Positions 386 to 53,981 of a stretch of DNA of 64,000 nt are shown here, one piece after another. The first letter of the stretch is position 1. The number at the start of each line of letters is the position of its first letter. The stretch is from contig JAZNQE010000025.1 of the NCBI GenBank assembly GCA_045590015.1, positions 57,970-121,969 of the forward strand. Reading direction: 5' to 3'. Position numbers and translations under genes: made by a program. Below the pieces are notes generated by a model. The model saw nothing but the letters and a program-made list of their open reading frames with translations, did not search any database and was not told the DNA's origin. Origin of the DNA: Candidatus Onthomorpha sp. GTDB taxonomy: Bacteria > Bacteroidota > Bacteroidia > Bacteroidales > P3.

Positions 386-416
386 GGGAGAAGCCATTCG
401 GCTTCTCCCTTTTTTG
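386..416 (+). terminator. rho-independent terminator
   Basis: GGGAGAAGCC-attc-GGCTTCTCCC followed by TTTTTT. Confidence 0.85.
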
Positions 417-519
417 TTTCTTGAAATCCCGAAAATAACTCTTTATTTCATTTTTCTGAAATCAAGTTTCGCTCGAACGAAATCAAGAAACAATTTACTG
501 AAATAAAGAATTATTTTTG
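413..519. repeat. 21-bp repeat family, locus 1 (2 forward + 3 reverse units, near-palindromic)
   Basis: TTGTTTCTTGAAATC ... CTGAAATCAAG ... GAAATCAAGAAACAA ... CTGAAATAAAGAATT. Confidence 0.7.
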
Positions 520-2270: not shown

Positions 2271-3470
2271 ATGAAAAATAAAGTATTAAATAAAGTTTTG
2301 ATTCTTGGAATCTTTGTATTTATATCTGTTTTTACGAAAGCACAATTAGATACGGCGTATATACAAAGTGTATATAGTAATCAGTATATTTATCCTTATC
2401 TGATGGATACAAATTACACAAGTATCAGAACATTAGCTTGTGAGCAGGCAGAGCCTATATCTTCACCGTTCGGTTTGTCAATACATAGTACAGTTAGTAA
2501 TCAACATCTTCTAACGGGCTTTGCACAGCGTTATGAAGTAACAGATAGCGTAGATATAATGGGGGTGGCATTGATGGTTCAAGGTTCAGTCGGATTAAAT
2601 AGTTGGCCGTCTCTTCTTATAATACAGGTTAGTGTATGGGATAGCACAATGACAAGCATGATATATTCACAACAATATATAGATGGGGGAATGGTAAATA
2701 ATTATCAACGACCAGCAACAACTTCTTATCCTTTTATAGAGTTTATTTTTGATGATACTTTGACCTTATACGAAGATTATCATATAGCATTTAGTTATCC
2801 TAAAAGATGTGAAGAATTTATGACATCAGTCCCTTTGTTTATGACTCTAAGTGATTATGCACTTCAAGTAGTTGACCCATATTCGGATTATTGTACTCCA
2901 TATGGGATTTGTACAAAATACAAACCGTATGTAATGTTTGGATGTGAGGGAGAAAGAAGTTGGTTACATGTTGATAGTGTTACTTATCAAGGTTCACAAA
3001 ACTATCACAAGATTGCAAGATATCAAAATTATCAAGAGAATTTAATATATCCGGATCTTCCTGTTTGTGATTCTGTTGTTTACAAAGCGATTGGCATTTG
3101 TCCTATCAAGGCTTTGGAAAACTCAATTATAACAGATAACGATTCGACATCAACAGGTGGTGGCTCAACAGGCACAGGTGATGATACGACTTCAACGGGT
3201 GACGGTTCGCAAGATAGTTATATAGCAACGGTGTTGGCAGATAAGGACATAGAACTTTATCCGAATCCTGCCGATGAAGTTTTGAATATACGTTCTGACT
3301 ATAACATAACGGAGATTGAGGTTATCGATGCGATGAATCGTTTGATCGAGCATTGGGAACTTAACTCGAGAGAATTGACTCTTGATGTCGCAAGCTATAA
3401 ATCGGGAACATATTTCATCATAATCAAAACAGACAAAGGCTCATTAACGAAGAAATTCATCGTAAGATAG
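2271..3470 (+). CDS. hypothetical T9SS cargo protein with C-terminal sorting domain
   Basis: Signal peptide, a Thr/Gly/Ser/Asp linker (TDNDSTSTGGGSTGTGDDTTSTGDGS), then the CTD LYPNPADEVLNIRS...GTYFIIIKTDKGSLTKKFIVR. A terminator follows. Confidence 0.75.
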   Translation: MKNKVLNKVLILGIFVFISVFTKAQLDTAYIQSVYSNQYIYPYLMDTNYTSIRTLACEQAEPISSPFGLSIHSTVSNQHLLTGFAQRYEVTDSVDIMGVALMVQGSVGLNSWPSLLIIQVSVWDSTMTSMIYSQQYIDGGMVNNYQRPATTSYPFIEFIFDDTLTLYEDYHIAFSYPKRCEEFMTSVPLFMTLSDYALQVVDPYSDYCTPYGICTKYKPYVMFGCEGERSWLHVDSVTYQGSQNYHKIARYQNYQENLIYPDLPVCDSVVYKAIGICPIKALENSIITDNDSTSTGGGSTGTGDDTTSTGDGSQDSYIATVLADKDIELYPNPADEVLNIRSDYNITEIEVIDAMNRLIEHWELNSRELTLDVASYKSGTYFIIIKTDKGSLTKKFIVR

Positions 3471-3495: not shown

Positions 3496-3524
3496 GGAGA
3501 TGCAAAACAGCGTCTCCTTTTTTA
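3496..3524 (+). terminator. rho-independent terminator
   Basis: GGAGATGC-aaaaca-GCGTCTCC followed by TTTTTT. Confidence 0.8.
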
Positions 3525-3540
3525 GTTTCAAAAAGTTCGT

Positions 3541-3622
3541 AAAACGAATCTTTGTTTGAGCAAATTCTTTCTTTGTTTTATTTTCCTGAAATCAAGAAAC
3601 AGAAAATTGTTTCTTTGATTAG
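3541..3622. repeat. 21-bp repeat family, locus 2
   Basis: CGAATCTTTGTTTGAG, AATTCTTTCTTTGTTTTA, CTGAAATCAAGAAACAG, AATTGTTTCTTTGATTAG. Confidence 0.7.
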
Positions 3623-3652
3623 AGTCTTGGTAATCAGTTTAAGCATTTGTTG

Positions 3653-13727: not shown

Positions 13728-14450
13728 TTATCTCAACTCAAAGTCATCTCCCAAATACTTTGTTCTCACCTCAACATCGGCAGCCAATTCTTCAGGAGTT
13801 CCATGTCTGAAAACCGTTCCTTCAATCAACAAATACGCTCTATTGGTTATAGAAAGAGTTTCATGAACATTATGATCAGTAATCAGTACGCCTATATTTC
13901 TATCTTTCAATCCCTTTACAATATGCTGAATATCTTGAACAGCTATCGGATCCACTCCTGCGAATGGCTCGTCCAACAAAACAAATTTTGGATCAGCCGC
14001 TAAAGCCCTCGCTATTTCACAACGTCTTCTCTCCCCTCCCGAAAGCTGATTACCATTGTTTTTCCGTATATGTGTCAGGCTGAATTCTTCCAAAAGGGAT
14101 TCCATTTTCTCTTTTCTTTCTTTCTGACTTATGTTTTTGAATTCCAAGACAGACATTATATTATCTTCAACCGACATATTTCGAAACACAGACGCTTCTT
14201 GTGCCAAATAACCAACACCGAGTTGAGATCTTTTATACATCGGCATCTTTGTAATATTGGTCTGATCTAAATAAACATCCCCCGAAAAAGGATGAATCAA
14301 GCCTGTCATCATGTAAAAAGTAGTTGTCTTACCTGCTCCATTCGGCCCTAACAAACCAACAATCTCTCCTTGCTCAACCGAAATCGACACACCCTTCACC
14401 ACAGTCCTTTTCCTATACTTTTTAACTACATTGTCAGTATATAATTTCAT
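13728..14450 (-). CDS. lptB: LPS export ABC transporter ATP-binding protein
   Basis: Walker A GPNGAGKTT, signature LSGGERRR, Walker B LLDEPF. Start moved to MKLYTDNVVKKY (Met62 of the ORF). A TAnnTTTG box lies 21 nt upstream. Confidence 0.85.
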   Translation of the reverse strand: MKLYTDNVVKKYRKRTVVKGVSISVEQGEIVGLLGPNGAGKTTTFYMMTGLIHPFSGDVYLDQTNITKMPMYKRSQLGVGYLAQEASVFRNMSVEDNIMSVLEFKNISQKERKEKMESLLEEFSLTHIRKNNGNQLSGGERRRCEIARALAADPKFVLLDEPFAGVDPIAVQDIQHIVKGLKDRNIGVLITDHNVHETLSITNRAYLLIEGTVFRHGTPEELAADVEVRTKYLGDDFELR

Positions 14451-14478: not shown

Positions 14479-14686
14479 CAACAAAGAAACGATAAAATGA
14501 ATTCAAGAAAGAAAAGAATAGTTCTTGAATCCGTTTCGCTGAATCTTGAATTCATTTTTCCACCATCATAATGCACTTTTTCAACAACCCATTCTATAGA
14601 AACATATCGAAATCTCAACAAGCCGAACAACAAACCATTTAATTGAAATCTTGTTATTTTTTAACCGACATTTTAGACAAAAACAT

Positions 14687-20617: not shown

Positions 20618-20722
20618 ACAGCGATTTTTCTTTCTTTGTTTTGGTAAAATGTTTCTTTGTTTCAGGAAATTGTTTCTTGATTTCAGCGGATTGTTTCTTT
20701 GTTTCATAAAATTCTGATTTGC
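20618..20722. repeat. 21-bp repeat family, locus 3 (4-5 head-to-tail units)
   Basis: TAAAATGTTTCTTTGTTTCAG GAAATTGTTTCTTGATTTCAG CGGATTGTTTCTTTGTTTCAT. Confidence 0.85.
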
Positions 20723-25119: not shown

Positions 25120-25206
25120 CGATTGGATCTTGATTTCAGAAAAATGTTTCTTGAATCCATTTTAGCGAAACAAAGATTCATTTTTCTGATTTCAAGAAAC
25201 AGTTTC
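25120..25206. repeat. 21-bp repeat family, locus 4
   Basis: GATTGGATCTTGATTTCAG AAAAATGTTTCTTGAATCC ... GAAACAAAGATTC ... CTGATTTCAAGAAACAG. Confidence 0.75.
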
Positions 25207-27775: not shown

Positions 27776-27868
27776 ATCCACATCTTTCAATAAAGCGAAA
27801 ACGCAAAACAGCGTCTTTTTTTTTTGTAATTCAGCGTATCAAATTCACTTCTATCAGTCTTATTTTCA

Positions 27869-27964
27869 CGATATTTGAATCCAGAAAACTCTTTCTTGAT
27901 TTCAGAAAAATAAAACAAAGAATCAGCAAATTGTTTCTTTGTTTCAGTAAATTAAAACAAGGAG
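27869..27964. repeat. 21-bp repeat family, locus 5
   Basis: AAAACTCTTTCTTGATTTCAG AAAAATAAAACAAAGAATCAG CAAATTGTTTCTTTGTTTCAG. Confidence 0.8.
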
Positions 27965-32167: not shown

Positions 32168-32302
32168 AAAATGTTTTTGTTTGACAACAAACGACAAACA
32201 GCAGACAACTGATTATTAAAACAAAGATTCAGAAAAATAATTCTTGATTTCGTTCGACTGATTCTTGATTTTATTTTTCTAAAACAAAGAAAGAAAAAAA
32301 CG
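32168..32302. repeat. 21-bp repeat family, locus 6
   Basis: AAAACAAAGATTCAG AAAAATAATTCTTGATTTCGT TCGACTGATTCTTGATTTTAT ... AAAACAAAGAAAGAA. Confidence 0.8.
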
Positions 32303-35419: not shown

Positions 35420-35532
35420 AATCCAAGAAAGACAAAGAAAAGTTTACCGAAAACAAAACAAAGATTCAGAAAAATGATTCTTGATTTCAGGAAATTAAAA
35501 CAAAGATTCGGAAAATTGTTTCTTGATTTCGT
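35420..35532. repeat. 21-bp repeat family, locus 7 (alternating reverse/forward units)
   Basis: AAAACAAAGATTCAG AAAAATGATTCTTGATTTCAG GAAATTAAAACAAAGATTCGG AAAATTGTTTCTTGATTTCGT. Confidence 0.85.
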
Positions 35533-36660: not shown

Positions 36661-36733
36661 TTCGTTTTAATTCTCTGAAATCAAATTTCAATTTTCTAAA
36701 ACGAAGATTCAGAAAATTGATTCTTTGTTCCGT
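36661..36733. repeat. 21-bp repeat family, locus 8
   Basis: CTGAAATCAAATTTC ... AAAACGAAGATTCAG AAAATTGATTCTTTGTTCCGT. Coordinates are approximate. Confidence 0.65.
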
Positions 36734-41780: not shown

Positions 41781-44483
41781 TTATATGTTCCGCAATGCTT
41801 TGACCAAAGTAGAGAAAACTTCTCCTCTATGTTCGAAATTGCGGAACATATCATAACTGCTGGCTGCCGGAGAGAGCAAACAAATCTTTCCTTTCTCAGT
41901 ATTTTCTGCACACCATTTCACAATAGCCTCGTAATCATCACAAACAAAGGCATTGTAATCAAGTCCTGATTCACTCAAGATTTCGTTCATTCTCTTGCCT
42001 GCCTGACCTACAAAAACAATGTTCTGAACAGAAAAGCGTTTTAGTTCTTTTGCAAGAATGCTATAGTCGATTCCACGATCTTTTCCTCCAAGAATAAGAG
42101 TCTGAACATCTTTCAATGCTTCCAGTGCTGCAATTGTCGCTTCAGGAATAGTACTTATGCTATCGTTGTAATAACTTACTCCATCAATTACCCCAATCGG
42201 TTGAAGTCTGTGTGCCAAAGGCTCGAAGTTTATCATACTTTCAATTGCCTTTTCTTTATCCAATCCCAATATCTCAACAACTTTCATTGCCGCAACCGCA
42301 TTCGATTTGTTATGTTCACCTTTCAAATATTTCAATTCGGGGTAATGATACCCTTCCTTTACGAATCCTATAAGCGTAGAGGGCAAATCATTGGCTTGAA
42401 TCAGGTTTTGTATTCTCTTGTCATCAGAATCAAACACAAAATAATCCGACTCGCTTTGTTTGCTTGCAAGATTGAATTTTGCGCTCCAATATTCTGCACA
42501 ATCACCAAAATGATCCAAATGTTCCTCATAAAGATTCAATAAAACGGATATATGAGGCGACCGTTTGATAAATTGCAATTGATGAGCTGACATTTCGGCA
42601 ACGATTATCGTATCTTTGTTTATCGAATCTATTGTCTCGAAAAGTGGCACACCTATATTACCTGCAAAGACCACATTCGGAGTTTGATCTTTTATTATCT
42701 TATAAATCAAACTACTTGTGGTACTCTTGCCTTTTGTTCCGCTTACTGCGATCGTCTGAGAGGCAAAAAGTTGAAGAAAAATATCGCTTTGAGATGTGAT
42801 TTTATCCTTCGGAACAAACGGAATATTCTTATAAGGTATTCCCGGGGCTTTTATGAATAGCGTTCTATCATTCAGATTATCAACACCAAGCAAACAGTAT
42901 TCTAAATCTTGAAAAGATTTTTTTGTTTCTTTGTTTTGAGAAATTGTTTCTTGATTTCGCAAAATCAGTTCTTTGTTTCCGTCAGCAACCACAAGAGAAC
43001 AATCTGCTCCGATTCGTTCAAGCAGTTTCACAGTTGAGATTCCCTCTCTTCCATATCCCAACACAGCAACTTTCTCCGAAGCAAACATACGTTTTAATTC
43101 AGCCTTGACAATGGCAGCGTATGAATCGGCAAAGATCTCGAAGTCTCTTGGCAAAAGGTTATGCTGATTTTGCAAGGTGAACAAATTATGCGAGTCGGTC
43201 ATATCAAGACAAGATTGAGAAAACGGAAGTTGTAACCACTCTTTCAACAGTATTTCTTTTTCAGAACCAGCCTCTCGTTTTATTCTCATCGCAATCGCCA
43301 TATTTACCTCATCGATAGTCCCTACGCATTCGAAAGGCTTTTGCTCTCCAACCCCACACAATTCAAACAAATAGTCTTTCAGATTTTCGTCTTCAAAGAG
43401 ATTCTTTCCGAATACTTCTGACAATAGTTTCGTTTCAACAAATGGAGACAAGATAATAAAGGCAAAAAGACACTTAGGGCAGTTCCCACACCATATATCT
43501 TGTTTTGAACCTGCGTTACAGCTTTTGAAAACGTGATGATATTTTAATTCGGAAAATAATTTCGCTATATGCAGTTCTGATAACGGGCGAAGGAAACTGA
43601 AATAGTTAAAGTCTGTTGATATGTATTTTGCAACGTATGAGCGGAAATCATTTTCAAATTCAAGGCTTTTTGAATATTGATGATTGATTTTTTCTCCCTT
43701 TACGGTAGATTCGTTTGCTGAACTTTCATTTGAAAGAGCTATGTGTTTGCGTTTTGAAAAGGCTGCTGTTAAAAGACTTGTAAATGCCAACATCGCAGAA
43801 AAAGGCGTATGTCCATTCAAATATCCTTCGGCGTTTAACTCCAATAAATGAGAGTCTATCGTTCTTCTGTCTTCTAAAATTTCATCTCTCTGAATCTTTG
43901 CTTGCTTACAACAATCCAAAGTCGCTCCTCTCGGATTTATTATAAACGTTCTGACATCTCTTCCTGCTCCATAAAGCAAATCAAGGCTCACAACAGAATC
44001 CTTACCTCCCCCGATCGGAACAATGTATTTGTCTTCCAGATCGAATGCACAAGGTTGCAATTCTTTATCTGTATCGAATGCGAAATTAACAAAACTATTT
44101 ATATCTGTTTTTATGCCGTTTATGAAAAAGAATTCACCCAATCCATAGAAGTAAATCTTTCTCCAAAATGCCAATTGTTCACTATCAAGTTTGTAATCGT
44201 GTATCAGAATAGTAGGAGAACAGAACGCTTTCCAATAACTCACCAATTCTATCATTCCGATATTGAAAACAAGTAAATCCAATTGTGCTTTCGATAGATG
44301 ATTGAACGAATAAAATTCTTTGGCCTTGAATGTATGAGTTGGAGTAAAAGAATGGTTCCTACAATAAAAGTGAAATTTCAGTACAAAATCACCTTCTACG
44401 ATATCATATTCAAATCCCCTGTATTCAAAGCAAGGATAACTTTCTCTCAATTGATTATATTTTTCTTGATTTTTCACATTCAT
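41781..44483 (-). CDS. bifunctional fusion: N-terminal PP-loop-type ATP-utilising domain (MurL-like candidate) + C-terminal MurD-type UDP-MurNAc-L-Ala:glutamate ligase
   Basis: The N-part (aa 1-465) has YIVPIGGGKDSVVSL and a CNAGSKQDIWCGNCPKC Cys cluster. The C-part starts at internal Met466 (MFASEKVAVLGYG) with SGTKGKST, NDSISTIPEA, LGGKDRG and LLSPAASSYDMFRNFEHRG. Confidence 0.6.
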   Translation of the reverse strand: MNVKNQEKYNQLRESYPCFEYRGFEYDIVEGDFVLKFHFYCRNHSFTPTHTFKAKEFYSFNHLSKAQLDLLVFNIGMIELVSYWKAFCSPTILIHDYKLDSEQLAFWRKIYFYGLGEFFFINGIKTDINSFVNFAFDTDKELQPCAFDLEDKYIVPIGGGKDSVVSLDLLYGAGRDVRTFIINPRGATLDCCKQAKIQRDEILEDRRTIDSHLLELNAEGYLNGHTPFSAMLAFTSLLTAAFSKRKHIALSNESSANESTVKGEKINHQYSKSLEFENDFRSYVAKYISTDFNYFSFLRPLSELHIAKLFSELKYHHVFKSCNAGSKQDIWCGNCPKCLFAFIILSPFVETKLLSEVFGKNLFEDENLKDYLFELCGVGEQKPFECVGTIDEVNMAIAMRIKREAGSEKEILLKEWLQLPFSQSCLDMTDSHNLFTLQNQHNLLPRDFEIFADSYAAIVKAELKRMFASEKVAVLGYGREGISTVKLLERIGADCSLVVADGNKELILRNQETISQNKETKKSFQDLEYCLLGVDNLNDRTLFIKAPGIPYKNIPFVPKDKITSQSDIFLQLFASQTIAVSGTKGKSTTSSLIYKIIKDQTPNVVFAGNIGVPLFETIDSINKDTIIVAEMSAHQLQFIKRSPHISVLLNLYEEHLDHFGDCAEYWSAKFNLASKQSESDYFVFDSDDKRIQNLIQANDLPSTLIGFVKEGYHYPELKYLKGEHNKSNAVAAMKVVEILGLDKEKAIESMINFEPLAHRLQPIGVIDGVSYYNDSISTIPEATIAALEALKDVQTLILGGKDRGIDYSILAKELKRFSVQNIVFVGQAGKRMNEILSESGLDYNAFVCDDYEAIVKWCAENTEKGKICLLSPAASSYDMFRNFEHRGEVFSTLVKALRNI
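42915..42982. repeat. 21-bp repeat family, locus 9 (inside CDS 41781..44483, in frame)
   Basis: TTTTTGTTTCTTTGTTTTGAG AAATTGTTTCTTGATTTCGC AAAATCAGTTCTTTGTTTCCGT. Confidence 0.8.
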
Positions 44484-46984: not shown

Positions 46985-47125
46985 CTTATTTCTTAAATCA
47001 ATCTACTGAAACTTTATATGGATAAAATAATTCTTGATTTCAGTATTACTGATTCTTGATTCTAATTTTTCCTTTCTTGATTTTGACGAAATGATTCTTG
47101 ATATCACTTCTTTATTTCTTCGATT
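46985..47125. repeat. 21-bp repeat family, locus 10 (4-5 forward units)
   Basis: AAAATAATTCTTGATTTCAG TATTACTGATTCTTGATTCTAA TTTTTCCTTTCTTGATTTTGAC GAAATGATTCTTGATATCAC. Confidence 0.8.
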
Positions 47126-53526: not shown

Positions 53527-53617
53527 CACAACTATAAGACAATAAGACTACAAGACAACGAGATAGTTGTCATTTTATAGTCTTATGGACTTGTTCTCTT
53601 TCAGACTCCTTGACCCC

Positions 53618-53697
53618 GAGTCTTTGTTTTAGAAAACTGATTCTTGATTTCGGCAGATTATTTCTTGATTTCGATAGAGCGATTCTTTGTTTTATTT
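53618..53697. repeat. 21-bp repeat family, locus 11
   Basis: GAGTCTTTGTTTTAG AAAACTGATTCTTGATTTCGG CAGATTATTTCTTGATTTCGA TAGAGCGATTCTTTGTTTTAT. Confidence 0.85.
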
Positions 53698-53720
53698 TCA
53701 CAAAACGCCATTTCGAAAAT

Positions 53721-53829
53721 ATTACGAAGTTTTCGTAATATTATTTCGAAGCCTTCGTAATCCGATTACGACAAACTCGTAATACTATTACGACAGTTTC
53801 GTAATACCATTACGAAGCCTTCGTAAAAT
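53721..53829. repeat. 5 x 22-bp tandem array, each unit a 19-bp palindrome ATTACGAAG-N-CTTCGTAAT
   Basis: Units start at 53721, 53743, 53765, 53787 and 53809, an exact 22-bp phase. Sequences: ATTACGAAGTTTTCGTAAT, ATTTCGAAGCCTTCGTAAT, ATTACGACAAACTCGTAAT, ATTACGACAGTTTCGTAAT, ATTACGAAGCCTTCGTAAA. A related ATTTCGAAAAT lies at about 53710. Confidence 0.9.
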
Positions 53830-53981
53830 AATTATCAAGCCGTTGATTTTTTTTGATACAAAGAAAAACGCAGTTGCAAACGCCTTTATCTATCTTGCAA
53901 AGGCTTGTTTGGTTTTGCGGAAAGTAGGAAAATCATTATCTTTTCTTATTAAAGTATAACAATAACTCTTAGAAAAGAATT

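Follow-up and report, generated by a model that had tools for sequence, protein, structure and literature searches.

Three in-frame units of a 21-bp intergenic repeat family form a putative coding minisatellite in a murL-murD gene of Candidatus Onthomorpha

The murL-murD fusion gene (hereafter murLD) of Candidatus Onthomorpha sp., a member of the Bacteroidales, contains a tract of 21-nt direct repeats that belongs, at the DNA level, to a family of short tandem repeats populating the surrounding intergenic regions. The tract was analysed within a 64,000-nt stretch of contig JAZNQE010000025.1 (assembly GCA_045590015.1, positions 57,970 to 121,969 of the forward strand), referred to as the window. 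It is read in-frame, falls into a helix and loop of the N-terminal domain of the MurD part and varies in copy number among orthologues. Shuffling of units between positions, length changes in steps of 7 aa and polymorphism within a cluster of close relatives are, judging from the sequences compared, the behaviour of a coding minisatellite. We favour, with moderate confidence, an in-situ origin, in which the tract expanded where it stands and was either made uniform with the intergenic family or extended from it. Most probably, it did not originate as a ready-made mobile insert, and we infer that the encoded peptide is tolerated rather than functional.

Results

The in-frame tract matches the intergenic family at the DNA level

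Tandem Repeats Finder and a repeat search detected period-21 arrays of two to four units, in both orientations, in about a dozen spacers of the window, including divergent, convergent and co-directional ones alike (Table 1). A 14-mer core of the family occurs 32 times, compared with 4.0 expected matches, and, with arrays at 11 listed sites, the intergenic family described in the initial annotation is real. The murLD tract is the sole array within a gene in the window, sitting ~1500 nt into a 2703-nt open reading frame (ORF) that has full-length orthologues, and thus departs from the intergenic location of the family. Re-reading of the sequence and of the 900-aa ORF bore out the three units previously placed at 42920-42940, 42941-42960 and 42961-42982 on the + strand, as well as the translation of residues 501-524 (DGNKELILRNQETISQNKETKKSF). 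On the coding strand, the tract spells three heptads, every one of which opens with N-[K/Q]-E: NKELILR (N503-R509; AAC AAA GAA CTG ATT TTG CGA), NQETISQ (N510-Q516; AAT CAA GAA ACA ATT TCT CAA) and NKETKKS (N517-S523; AAC AAA GAA ACA AAA AAA TCT). An assembly artefact could be ruled out as its origin, with 15/15 listed members of the species' own cluster of 36 proteins (90% identity), from independent assemblies, all being 900 aa long.

Membership in the family was scored with a position weight matrix (PWM) of 20 nt, whose training set comprised only the intergenic units of the window, excluding the copy in the coding sequence (CDS), and compared with 1.43 Mb of control loci searched on both strands. 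The unit consensus of the family is AAAtTGtTTCTTgaTTTCag. At 27.1 bits, the central CDS unit is among the six best matches in the window, and the units on either side of it reach 8.2 and 7.5 bits. An exact match of 18 nt links the central unit to the intergenic one at 20667-20684, and 19/20 positions of the central unit agree with the units at 477 and 35513, while the tract as a whole aligns to the four-unit array at 20625..20708 with 71% identity over 83 nt. Its phased three-unit sum of 42.8 ranks about fifth among the arrays of the window, compared with 42.0 and 42.1 for the intergenic arrays at 27886 and 53613. The control loci yielded a best single unit of 18.1 bits, with none at 20 bits or above, and a best three-unit sum of 22.0.

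To assess the contribution of codon choice, synonymous encodings of the observed peptide were drawn according to the codon usage of the window. The observed best unit was reached by only 0.29% of them (P = 0.003) and the three-unit sum by 0.06% (P = 0.0006), and the same procedure gave P = 0.0001 and P = 0.005 for two orthologues (L081 and L082, respectively). Conversely, when the peptides of three further orthologues (L085, L084 and L088) were re-encoded with the codon usage of the window, all stayed below 18 bits, the L085 peptide having a median of -1.6 and a 99th percentile of 9.7 bits. Hence, the codons chosen and the residues replaced within the clade both tend towards the repeat consensus. 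The window peptide itself, given ordinary codon usage, reaches a median best unit of 11.4 bits, so that part of the resemblance stems from the N-K-E/Q motif in AT-rich codons. The likeness proposed in the initial annotation is therefore one of DNA, in phase and in-frame, and not merely of peptide.

These scores bear on the possibility that the resemblance is coincidental. An ancestral amphipathic helix in which N-[KQE]-E recurs at seven-residue intervals, encoded by AT-rich codons, could have been duplicated in situ by slippage only, with no intergenic exchange, its QNKE sequence (CAAAACAAAGAA, reverse complement TTCTTTGTTTTG) merely chancing to resemble the repeat core. Such an origin would account for the 11.4 bits obtained from the peptide alone, and multi-unit scores are indeed inflated by the duplication of one matching unit. 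It is harder to reconcile with codons that outperform 99.7% of the synonymous encodings in the best unit and 99.94% in the three-unit sum, repeatedly so in L081 and L082, with replacements that moved the clade's peptide towards the consensus from the low values seen for L085, and with control DNA devoid of any unit of at least 20 bits. Together with the comparative evidence given below, which cuts both ways, we regard coincidence as rather unlikely.

The tract lies in a predicted helix and loop of the MurD domain

The host gene encodes, in one polypeptide, an epimerase domain resembling MurL (UDP-MurNAc-L-Ala-L-Glu epimerase; aa 14-410) and a ligase of the MurD type (aa 471-895), a fusion whose homologues (more than 1000) are widespread in Bacteroidales and also occur in contigs labelled Clostridia, Saccharibacteria and Gammaproteobacteria. 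The ligase half can be assigned to MurD, given that it scores 298 bits against the NCBIfam model TIGR01087 (murD; cut-off 212) and matches the middle and C-terminal Mur ligase domains of Pfam (Mur_ligase_M, PF08245; Mur_ligase_C, PF02875). The epimerase part reaches 247 bits with NF041275 (MurL), under the equivalog cut-off of 700, and matches to MurL_N and MurL_epimerase_C were found in orthologues of the host gene. A MurL epimerase acting with a ligase constitutes an alternative L-Glu route described for Xanthomonas in a review that mentions neither the fusion nor Bacteroidetes (PMC8788868).

The AlphaFold2 model of the host protein (mean predicted local distance difference test score, pLDDT, 89; predicted template modelling score, pTM, 0.85) places the tract between strands beta2 and beta3 of the MurD N-terminal domain, where strand 496-501 (LVVAD) is followed by helix alpha2 (504-517), a low-pLDDT loop (518-527, below 50 at 519-522) and strand 528-531. 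This arrangement agrees with the initial placement of the tract in the variable region after VVAD of the N-terminal Rossmann-like domain, and the in-frame position of the tract in a conserved ORF is, according to the model, compatible with the fold. The solved MurD structure of Streptococcus agalactiae (3lk7), which the host protein matches at E = 2e-53, shows the corresponding beta2-alpha2-beta3 connection, with a segment from beta2 to the PGI motif that is 7 residues shorter. Relative to E. coli MurD, the segment of the host protein is probably 9 aa longer, an excess put at ~10 aa in the initial annotation. The tract lengthens a probably surface-exposed helix and loop. Homologues widely share a D-x-N motif following beta2. 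In E. coli MurD, the residues next to beta2 (D35-T36-R37) contact the uridine diphosphate (UDP) moiety. The tract's D-G-N start is therefore probably ancestral and constrained, with the remainder representing helix extension and loop.

The tract varies in copy number by whole units

One scan of genome contigs returned, among the matches listed, a closest murLD orthologue of 59% identity; closer ones came from a separate contig search. Three heptads are present in orthologues of 93% and 76% identity, exactly 7 residues fewer in those of 73-74%, and two heptads, such as NEETIRQ NNESENI, in those of 64-67%. At 58-59%, the loop is shorter still, and in a group of 874-aa proteins (54-56%) it comprises 7 residues compared with 27 in the window protein, a difference of ~20 aa. 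At 69% (L084) and 68% (L083) identity, there are three and four heptads, respectively, of a different unit, CAA AAC GCC ... In addition, the L084 gene carries a 24-nt two-copy tandem repeat downstream of the PGI motif (L084 5893-5940). Within the 90%-identity cluster around P0003, representing a single sister species, three members have three heptads (900/901 aa) and five have two (893/894 aa), and a comparison of the window with L081 reveals units shuffled between positions. With a unit length that is a multiple of three and whole-unit copy-number polymorphism in close relatives, the tract has the characteristics of coding minisatellites, or variable number tandem repeats (VNTRs).

The initial annotation had asked whether an alignment of orthologues would show the segment to be absent from related genomes. 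The extra length is missing in the 874-aa group, but there is no clean presence or absence: loop lengths are graded (7, 13, 22 and 29 residues), and the intermediates retain the first heptad. The first heptad of the tract continues an ancestral helix motif, N-x-E-T-I-x-Q-N, which is present in orthologues down to 64% identity.

At three syntenic loci with 36-38% GC (L086, L081 and L082), intergenic units of the family are present, and the units in the gene score 27/17, 19/14 and 17 bits, respectively. The units in the genes of L083, L084, L085, L087 and L088 (43-48% GC) lie below 7 bits, and no intergenic period-21 arrays were detected in the 12-23 kb sampled from each of these genomes. In L085, whose genome was sampled for the N-x-E-T-I-x-Q motif, this applies to 17.9 kb. 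The loops of L083, L084 and L085 nevertheless have higher scores than the remainder of the respective gene (rank 0-0.05). A heptad register and N-x-E-T-I-x-Q motif that predate the clade, also in a genome showing no arrays, are in line with a coincidental resemblance, as is the enlargement of the same site in L083 and L084 with a unit foreign to the family.

The family enters a second gene and is found in distant genomes

A scan of metagenomes with the 18-mer AAATTGTTTCTTGATTTC returned mostly single chance matches in unrelated, often GC-rich contigs, along with ~20 multi-hit loci from family-bearing genomes. A second coding case is provided by the linker of a DUF2027-Smr gene (L161), which contains four phased units in-frame (Table 1) in a family-rich genome with 11 units in 9.5 kb. 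The reading frame of these units differs from that of murLD, giving KSRDNLT DSRNNPT KSRNNLP ESRNDFE. An 85% orthologue (L209), shorter by 14 aa, carries two weak units, and a 77% orthologue (L210) has an unrelated linker of the same shorter length with no recognisable units; this length does not change, at 382 aa, in orthologues down to 59% identity. In this gene, family units overwrote an ancestral linker and subsequently lengthened it. The case shows that the 21-bp family does enter coding sequence and that what is shared is the DNA rather than a particular peptide, which counts against a coincidental origin of the murLD tract. A further match in L164 (DEIKKQF, in an apparent nucleotidyltransferase) looks like chance.

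In the two coding cases known, translation follows the purine-rich strand and yields polar peptides. Two frames of this strand are open in 26/29 intergenic units, whereas the single open frame of the T-rich strand would encode the hydrophobic KLFLDFR. In the murLD frame, TGA closes 18/29 intergenic units (62%), and the murLD units carry CG, CA or GG variants in place of the stop.

More distant Bacteroidales genomes carry 21-bp variants of their own. A genome with 30% GC and a 46% orthologue (L010) has arrays of AAATTATTTCTTCGTTTTAG with up to six units, the longest array including four identical ones, and another Candidatus Onthomorpha genome (L002) has the variant CTAAATCAAGGATAGAAATTT. The family is therefore older than the murLD clade and evolves in concert within each genome.

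Features of the window

The coordinates of the tract and the arrays are collected in Table 1. No Rfam family matched anywhere in the window at gathering thresholds, and a literature search for a 21-bp intergenic tandem repeat of Bacteroidetes or Bacteroidales found none. A side-by-side comparison of 12 spacers, by eye only, showed no conserved flanks, leader or tail around the arrays. Terminator-like hairpins often precede them (380-415, 3497-3525 and 27800-27825). Two of these hairpins, beside two arrays, have the loop motif CAAAACAGCGTC in common, which was rejected as a family feature, since two copies are not significant. At 12 bits or above, 23 units lie on the + and 7 on the - strand, in a window with negative GC skew throughout and most genes on the - strand. 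Immediately downstream of one 21-bp array, five tandem 22-bp units (53720-53848; family D4), each with the internal palindrome ATTACGAAnnnnTTCGTAAT, look like an operator or iteron-type array.

Two sets of PWM matches apparently within ORFs (14497/14515 and 25120-25186) were discarded, as they lie upstream of the true starts, which follow TAnnTTTG promoter-like boxes at 14449 and 25096. An 18-bit match at 3372-3391 (+) was judged to be due to chance, as a single unit without phased neighbours; it falls into the 3' end of CDS 2271..3470, which reads as a putative C-terminal sorting domain of the type IX secretion system.

Table 1. Coordinates of the murLD tract, its host gene and arrays of the 21-bp family. 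Positions refer to the window unless a locus is named.
Feature	Position	Strand	Remarks
murL-murD host gene	41781..44483	-	900-aa ORF, 2703 nt
In-frame tract, three 21-nt units	42915..42977	-	residues 503-523; Tandem Repeats Finder period 21 at 42923-42979
CDS unit TTTTTGTTTCTTTGTTTTGA	42920..42939	+	8.2 bits; codes heptad 3; in 21-nt phase with central unit
Central CDS unit AAATTGTTTCTTGATTTCGC	42941..42960	+	27.1 bits; best match to intergenic consensus
CDS unit AAATCAGTTCTTTGTTTCCG	42962..42981	+	7.5 bits; codes heptad 1 and G502; overlaps probable ancestral D-G-N start of helix alpha2
Intergenic array	~411..517	both	directly 3' of terminator-like hairpin
Intergenic period-21 array	~3541..3623		repeat detection
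Intergenic period-21 array	~14494..14534		repeat detection
Intergenic array, four units (family D3)	20625..20708	+	between divergent genes; best in window
Intergenic period-21 array	~25120..25205		repeat detection
Intergenic array	27865..27958	+	between convergent gene ends; units alternate in orientation
Intergenic period-21 array	~32213..32275		repeat detection
Intergenic array	35450..35532	+	repeat detection, PWM
Intergenic period-21 array	~36672..36733		repeat detection
Intergenic array	47024..47107	+	between rsmA-like gene and tsf
Intergenic array	53613..53696	+	repeat detection, PWM
Four phased in-frame units, DUF2027-Smr linker	L161 1090-1172		metagenome contig JAEIGA010023071.1; 23.0, 20.5, 28.3, 19.3 bits
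Arrays of AAATTATTTCTTCGTTTTAG	L010 1556-1680, 9692-9795, 17594-17634		46% orthologue genome
Arrays of variant CTAAATCAAGGATAGAAATTT	L002 1100-1190, 17300-17470		Candidatus Onthomorpha

Discussion

Origin of the murLD tract

The initial interpretation of the tract as repeat DNA tolerated in a coding sequence, reminiscent of the palindromic elements of Rickettsia, holds with regard to in-frame family DNA in a tolerant helix-loop, but a step-wise coding minisatellite built on an ancestral helix describes the data better than a palindromic insertion. We propose that the tract is a coding minisatellite of three in-frame 21-bp family units, read from the purine-rich strand. As one unit corresponds to seven codons, the gain or loss of a unit would preserve the frame and change the protein by one heptad per step, through slipped-strand mispairing or unequal recombination. 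The added heptads would lengthen helix alpha2 and the flexible loop of the UDP-binding N-terminal domain. Growth may have been seeded by an ancestral Q-N-x-E-T-I (CAA AAC nnn GAA ACA ATT), which already resembled a unit junction. In the family-bearing lineage, the site would then have been enlarged and drawn towards the family consensus, with gene conversion involving the intergenic arrays as a likely route.

Several observations weigh against this scenario. Presence of the family is confounded with GC content, with arrays seen at 36-38% GC and none detectable at 43-48%, and the apparent absence of the family from the genomes of array-less orthologues refers to the 12-23 kb sampled per genome. 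L083 and L084 enlarged the same site with a different unit and show no visible intergenic arrays, so that in-situ slippage alone can lengthen the loop. The murLD loops of L010 and L002 are not copies of their own family variants, and neither a conversion tract nor a donor array was identified for the murLD units. The stop found in the murLD frame of 18/29 intergenic units makes import of a whole array less likely. Finally, conservation of the synonymous sites of the tract among close relatives (19/20 compared with 0.79 gene-wide, and 12/12 compared with 0.78) is only marginally raised, and the codons are mostly two-fold degenerate.

Instead of growing in place, a ready array or a mobile carrier, akin to Rickettsia palindromic elements (RPEs) or MITEs (miniature transposable elements with inverted repeats), could have entered the loop in-frame in an ancestor and decayed in its GC-richer descendants. 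The ~20 aa missing at the site in the 54-56% orthologues would fit such an event, and the loops of L084, L083 and L085 score above the remainder of the genes that contain them, in the manner of decayed relics; the family, with its variants in L010 and L002, also predates the clade. The tract itself has none of the hallmarks of an RPE- or MITE-type insert, given that no hairpin, inverted repeats, target duplication or Rfam match was detected at it. Its minimum free energy of -7.9 kcal/mol is unremarkable relative to shuffled sequences (z = -0.79), and its sole inverted pair spans 11 nt with 82% complementarity. Moreover, loop lengths are graded by single 7-aa steps rather than present or absent, the first unit codes for the conserved D-G-N helix start, the stop in 62% of the intergenic units would close the murLD frame, and in DUF2027-Smr a linker of two-unit length is ancestral and was overwritten rather than inserted. 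The likeness to an RPE as a discrete palindromic insert is thus not borne out, and we consider an insertion of this kind very unlikely.

A further possibility is that the units in the gene perform the same job as the intergenic ones, as DNA or RNA elements that bind a protein on one face or provide an internal or antisense promoter, with the peptide as a by-product. A unit of 21 bp corresponds to about two helix turns, the codons chosen are biased in the direction of the consensus, conservation at synonymous sites is slightly higher in the tract than gene-wide, distant Bacteroidales have conserved the family as genome-specific variants, and promoter activity is reported for BrickBuilt, a 23-nt minisatellite of Porphyromonas (PMC4596501). 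Set against these points are the occurrence of arrays in divergent, convergent and co-directional spacers alike, a unit number that is polymorphic within a species, the free divergence of the tract in L083-L085, and the weakness of a conservation signal drawn mainly from two-fold degenerate codons. Selection for a shared function as the cause of the tract seems highly improbable to us.

It is tempting to speculate, although we consider it decidedly doubtful, that the 21-bp family represents an active array, recognised by a protein, and that throughout the genome of this uncultured Bacteroidales lineage it colonises or overwrites coding segments that are flexible, producing heptad peptide modules in any open frame. 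It would then represent the tandem-repeat counterpart of the Rickettsia RPEs, and the in-gene copies might retain a function at the DNA level, such as a binding site or internal promoter inside murL-murD.

Comparison with known systems

Translated intergenic repeats are a documented, rare source of new peptide segments, with RPEs as the textbook case. Besides RPEs, dispersed repeats with in-frame intragenic copies include ERIC and BOX (PMC10969869). The in-situ growth that we favour adds to this picture a seven-codon unit, which lets arrays grow and shrink inside genes without breaking them, the DNA being read in gene-dependent frames, and thereby offers a simple, testable route to longer helices and linkers. 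The murLD tract points to an undescribed 21-bp family with genome-specific variants in distant Bacteroidales and provides a natural copy-number marker in an essential cell-wall gene of uncultured gut Bacteroidales.

The tract resembles Rickettsia RPEs in that a dispersed family has in-frame copies in housekeeping genes and adds a fold-compatible peptide (PMC10969869). However, RPEs are single palindromes of ~150 bp with a conserved peptide in one frame and insertion-type presence or absence, whereas the present tract consists of 3 x 21 nt direct repeats that change by single units, overlap an ancestral helix and are read in gene-dependent frames. Intragenic ERIC and BOX copies and MITE-derived fusions likewise represent intergenic families that occasionally lie in ORFs and are translated (PMC10969869), but each of these is a discrete mobile element bearing inverted repeats and does not consist of 21-nt units in tandem.

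Like coding minisatellites and VNTRs, the tract has a unit that is a multiple of three, keeps the frame and is polymorphic in copy number both between and within species. Typical coding VNTRs are gene-specific and mostly found in surface or antigenic proteins, whereas the murLD unit is common to a genome-wide intergenic family and its host is an essential peptidoglycan enzyme of the cytoplasm.

For the 21-bp family as such, the closest relative described is BrickBuilt of Porphyromonas gingivalis, which also consists of dispersed short tandem units of a Bacteroidales member, without spacers, with variable copy number and at many intergenic sites (PMC4596501). BrickBuilt has a 23-nt unit, not a multiple of three, a leader and tail with inverted-repeat ends and up to 22.8 units, and it was reported as strictly intergenic (PMC4596501). 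Unlike BrickBuilt, the family described here forms arrays of 2-6 units of 21 nt each, in both orientations and with no leader or tail discernible by eye, and it is found inside at least two genes.

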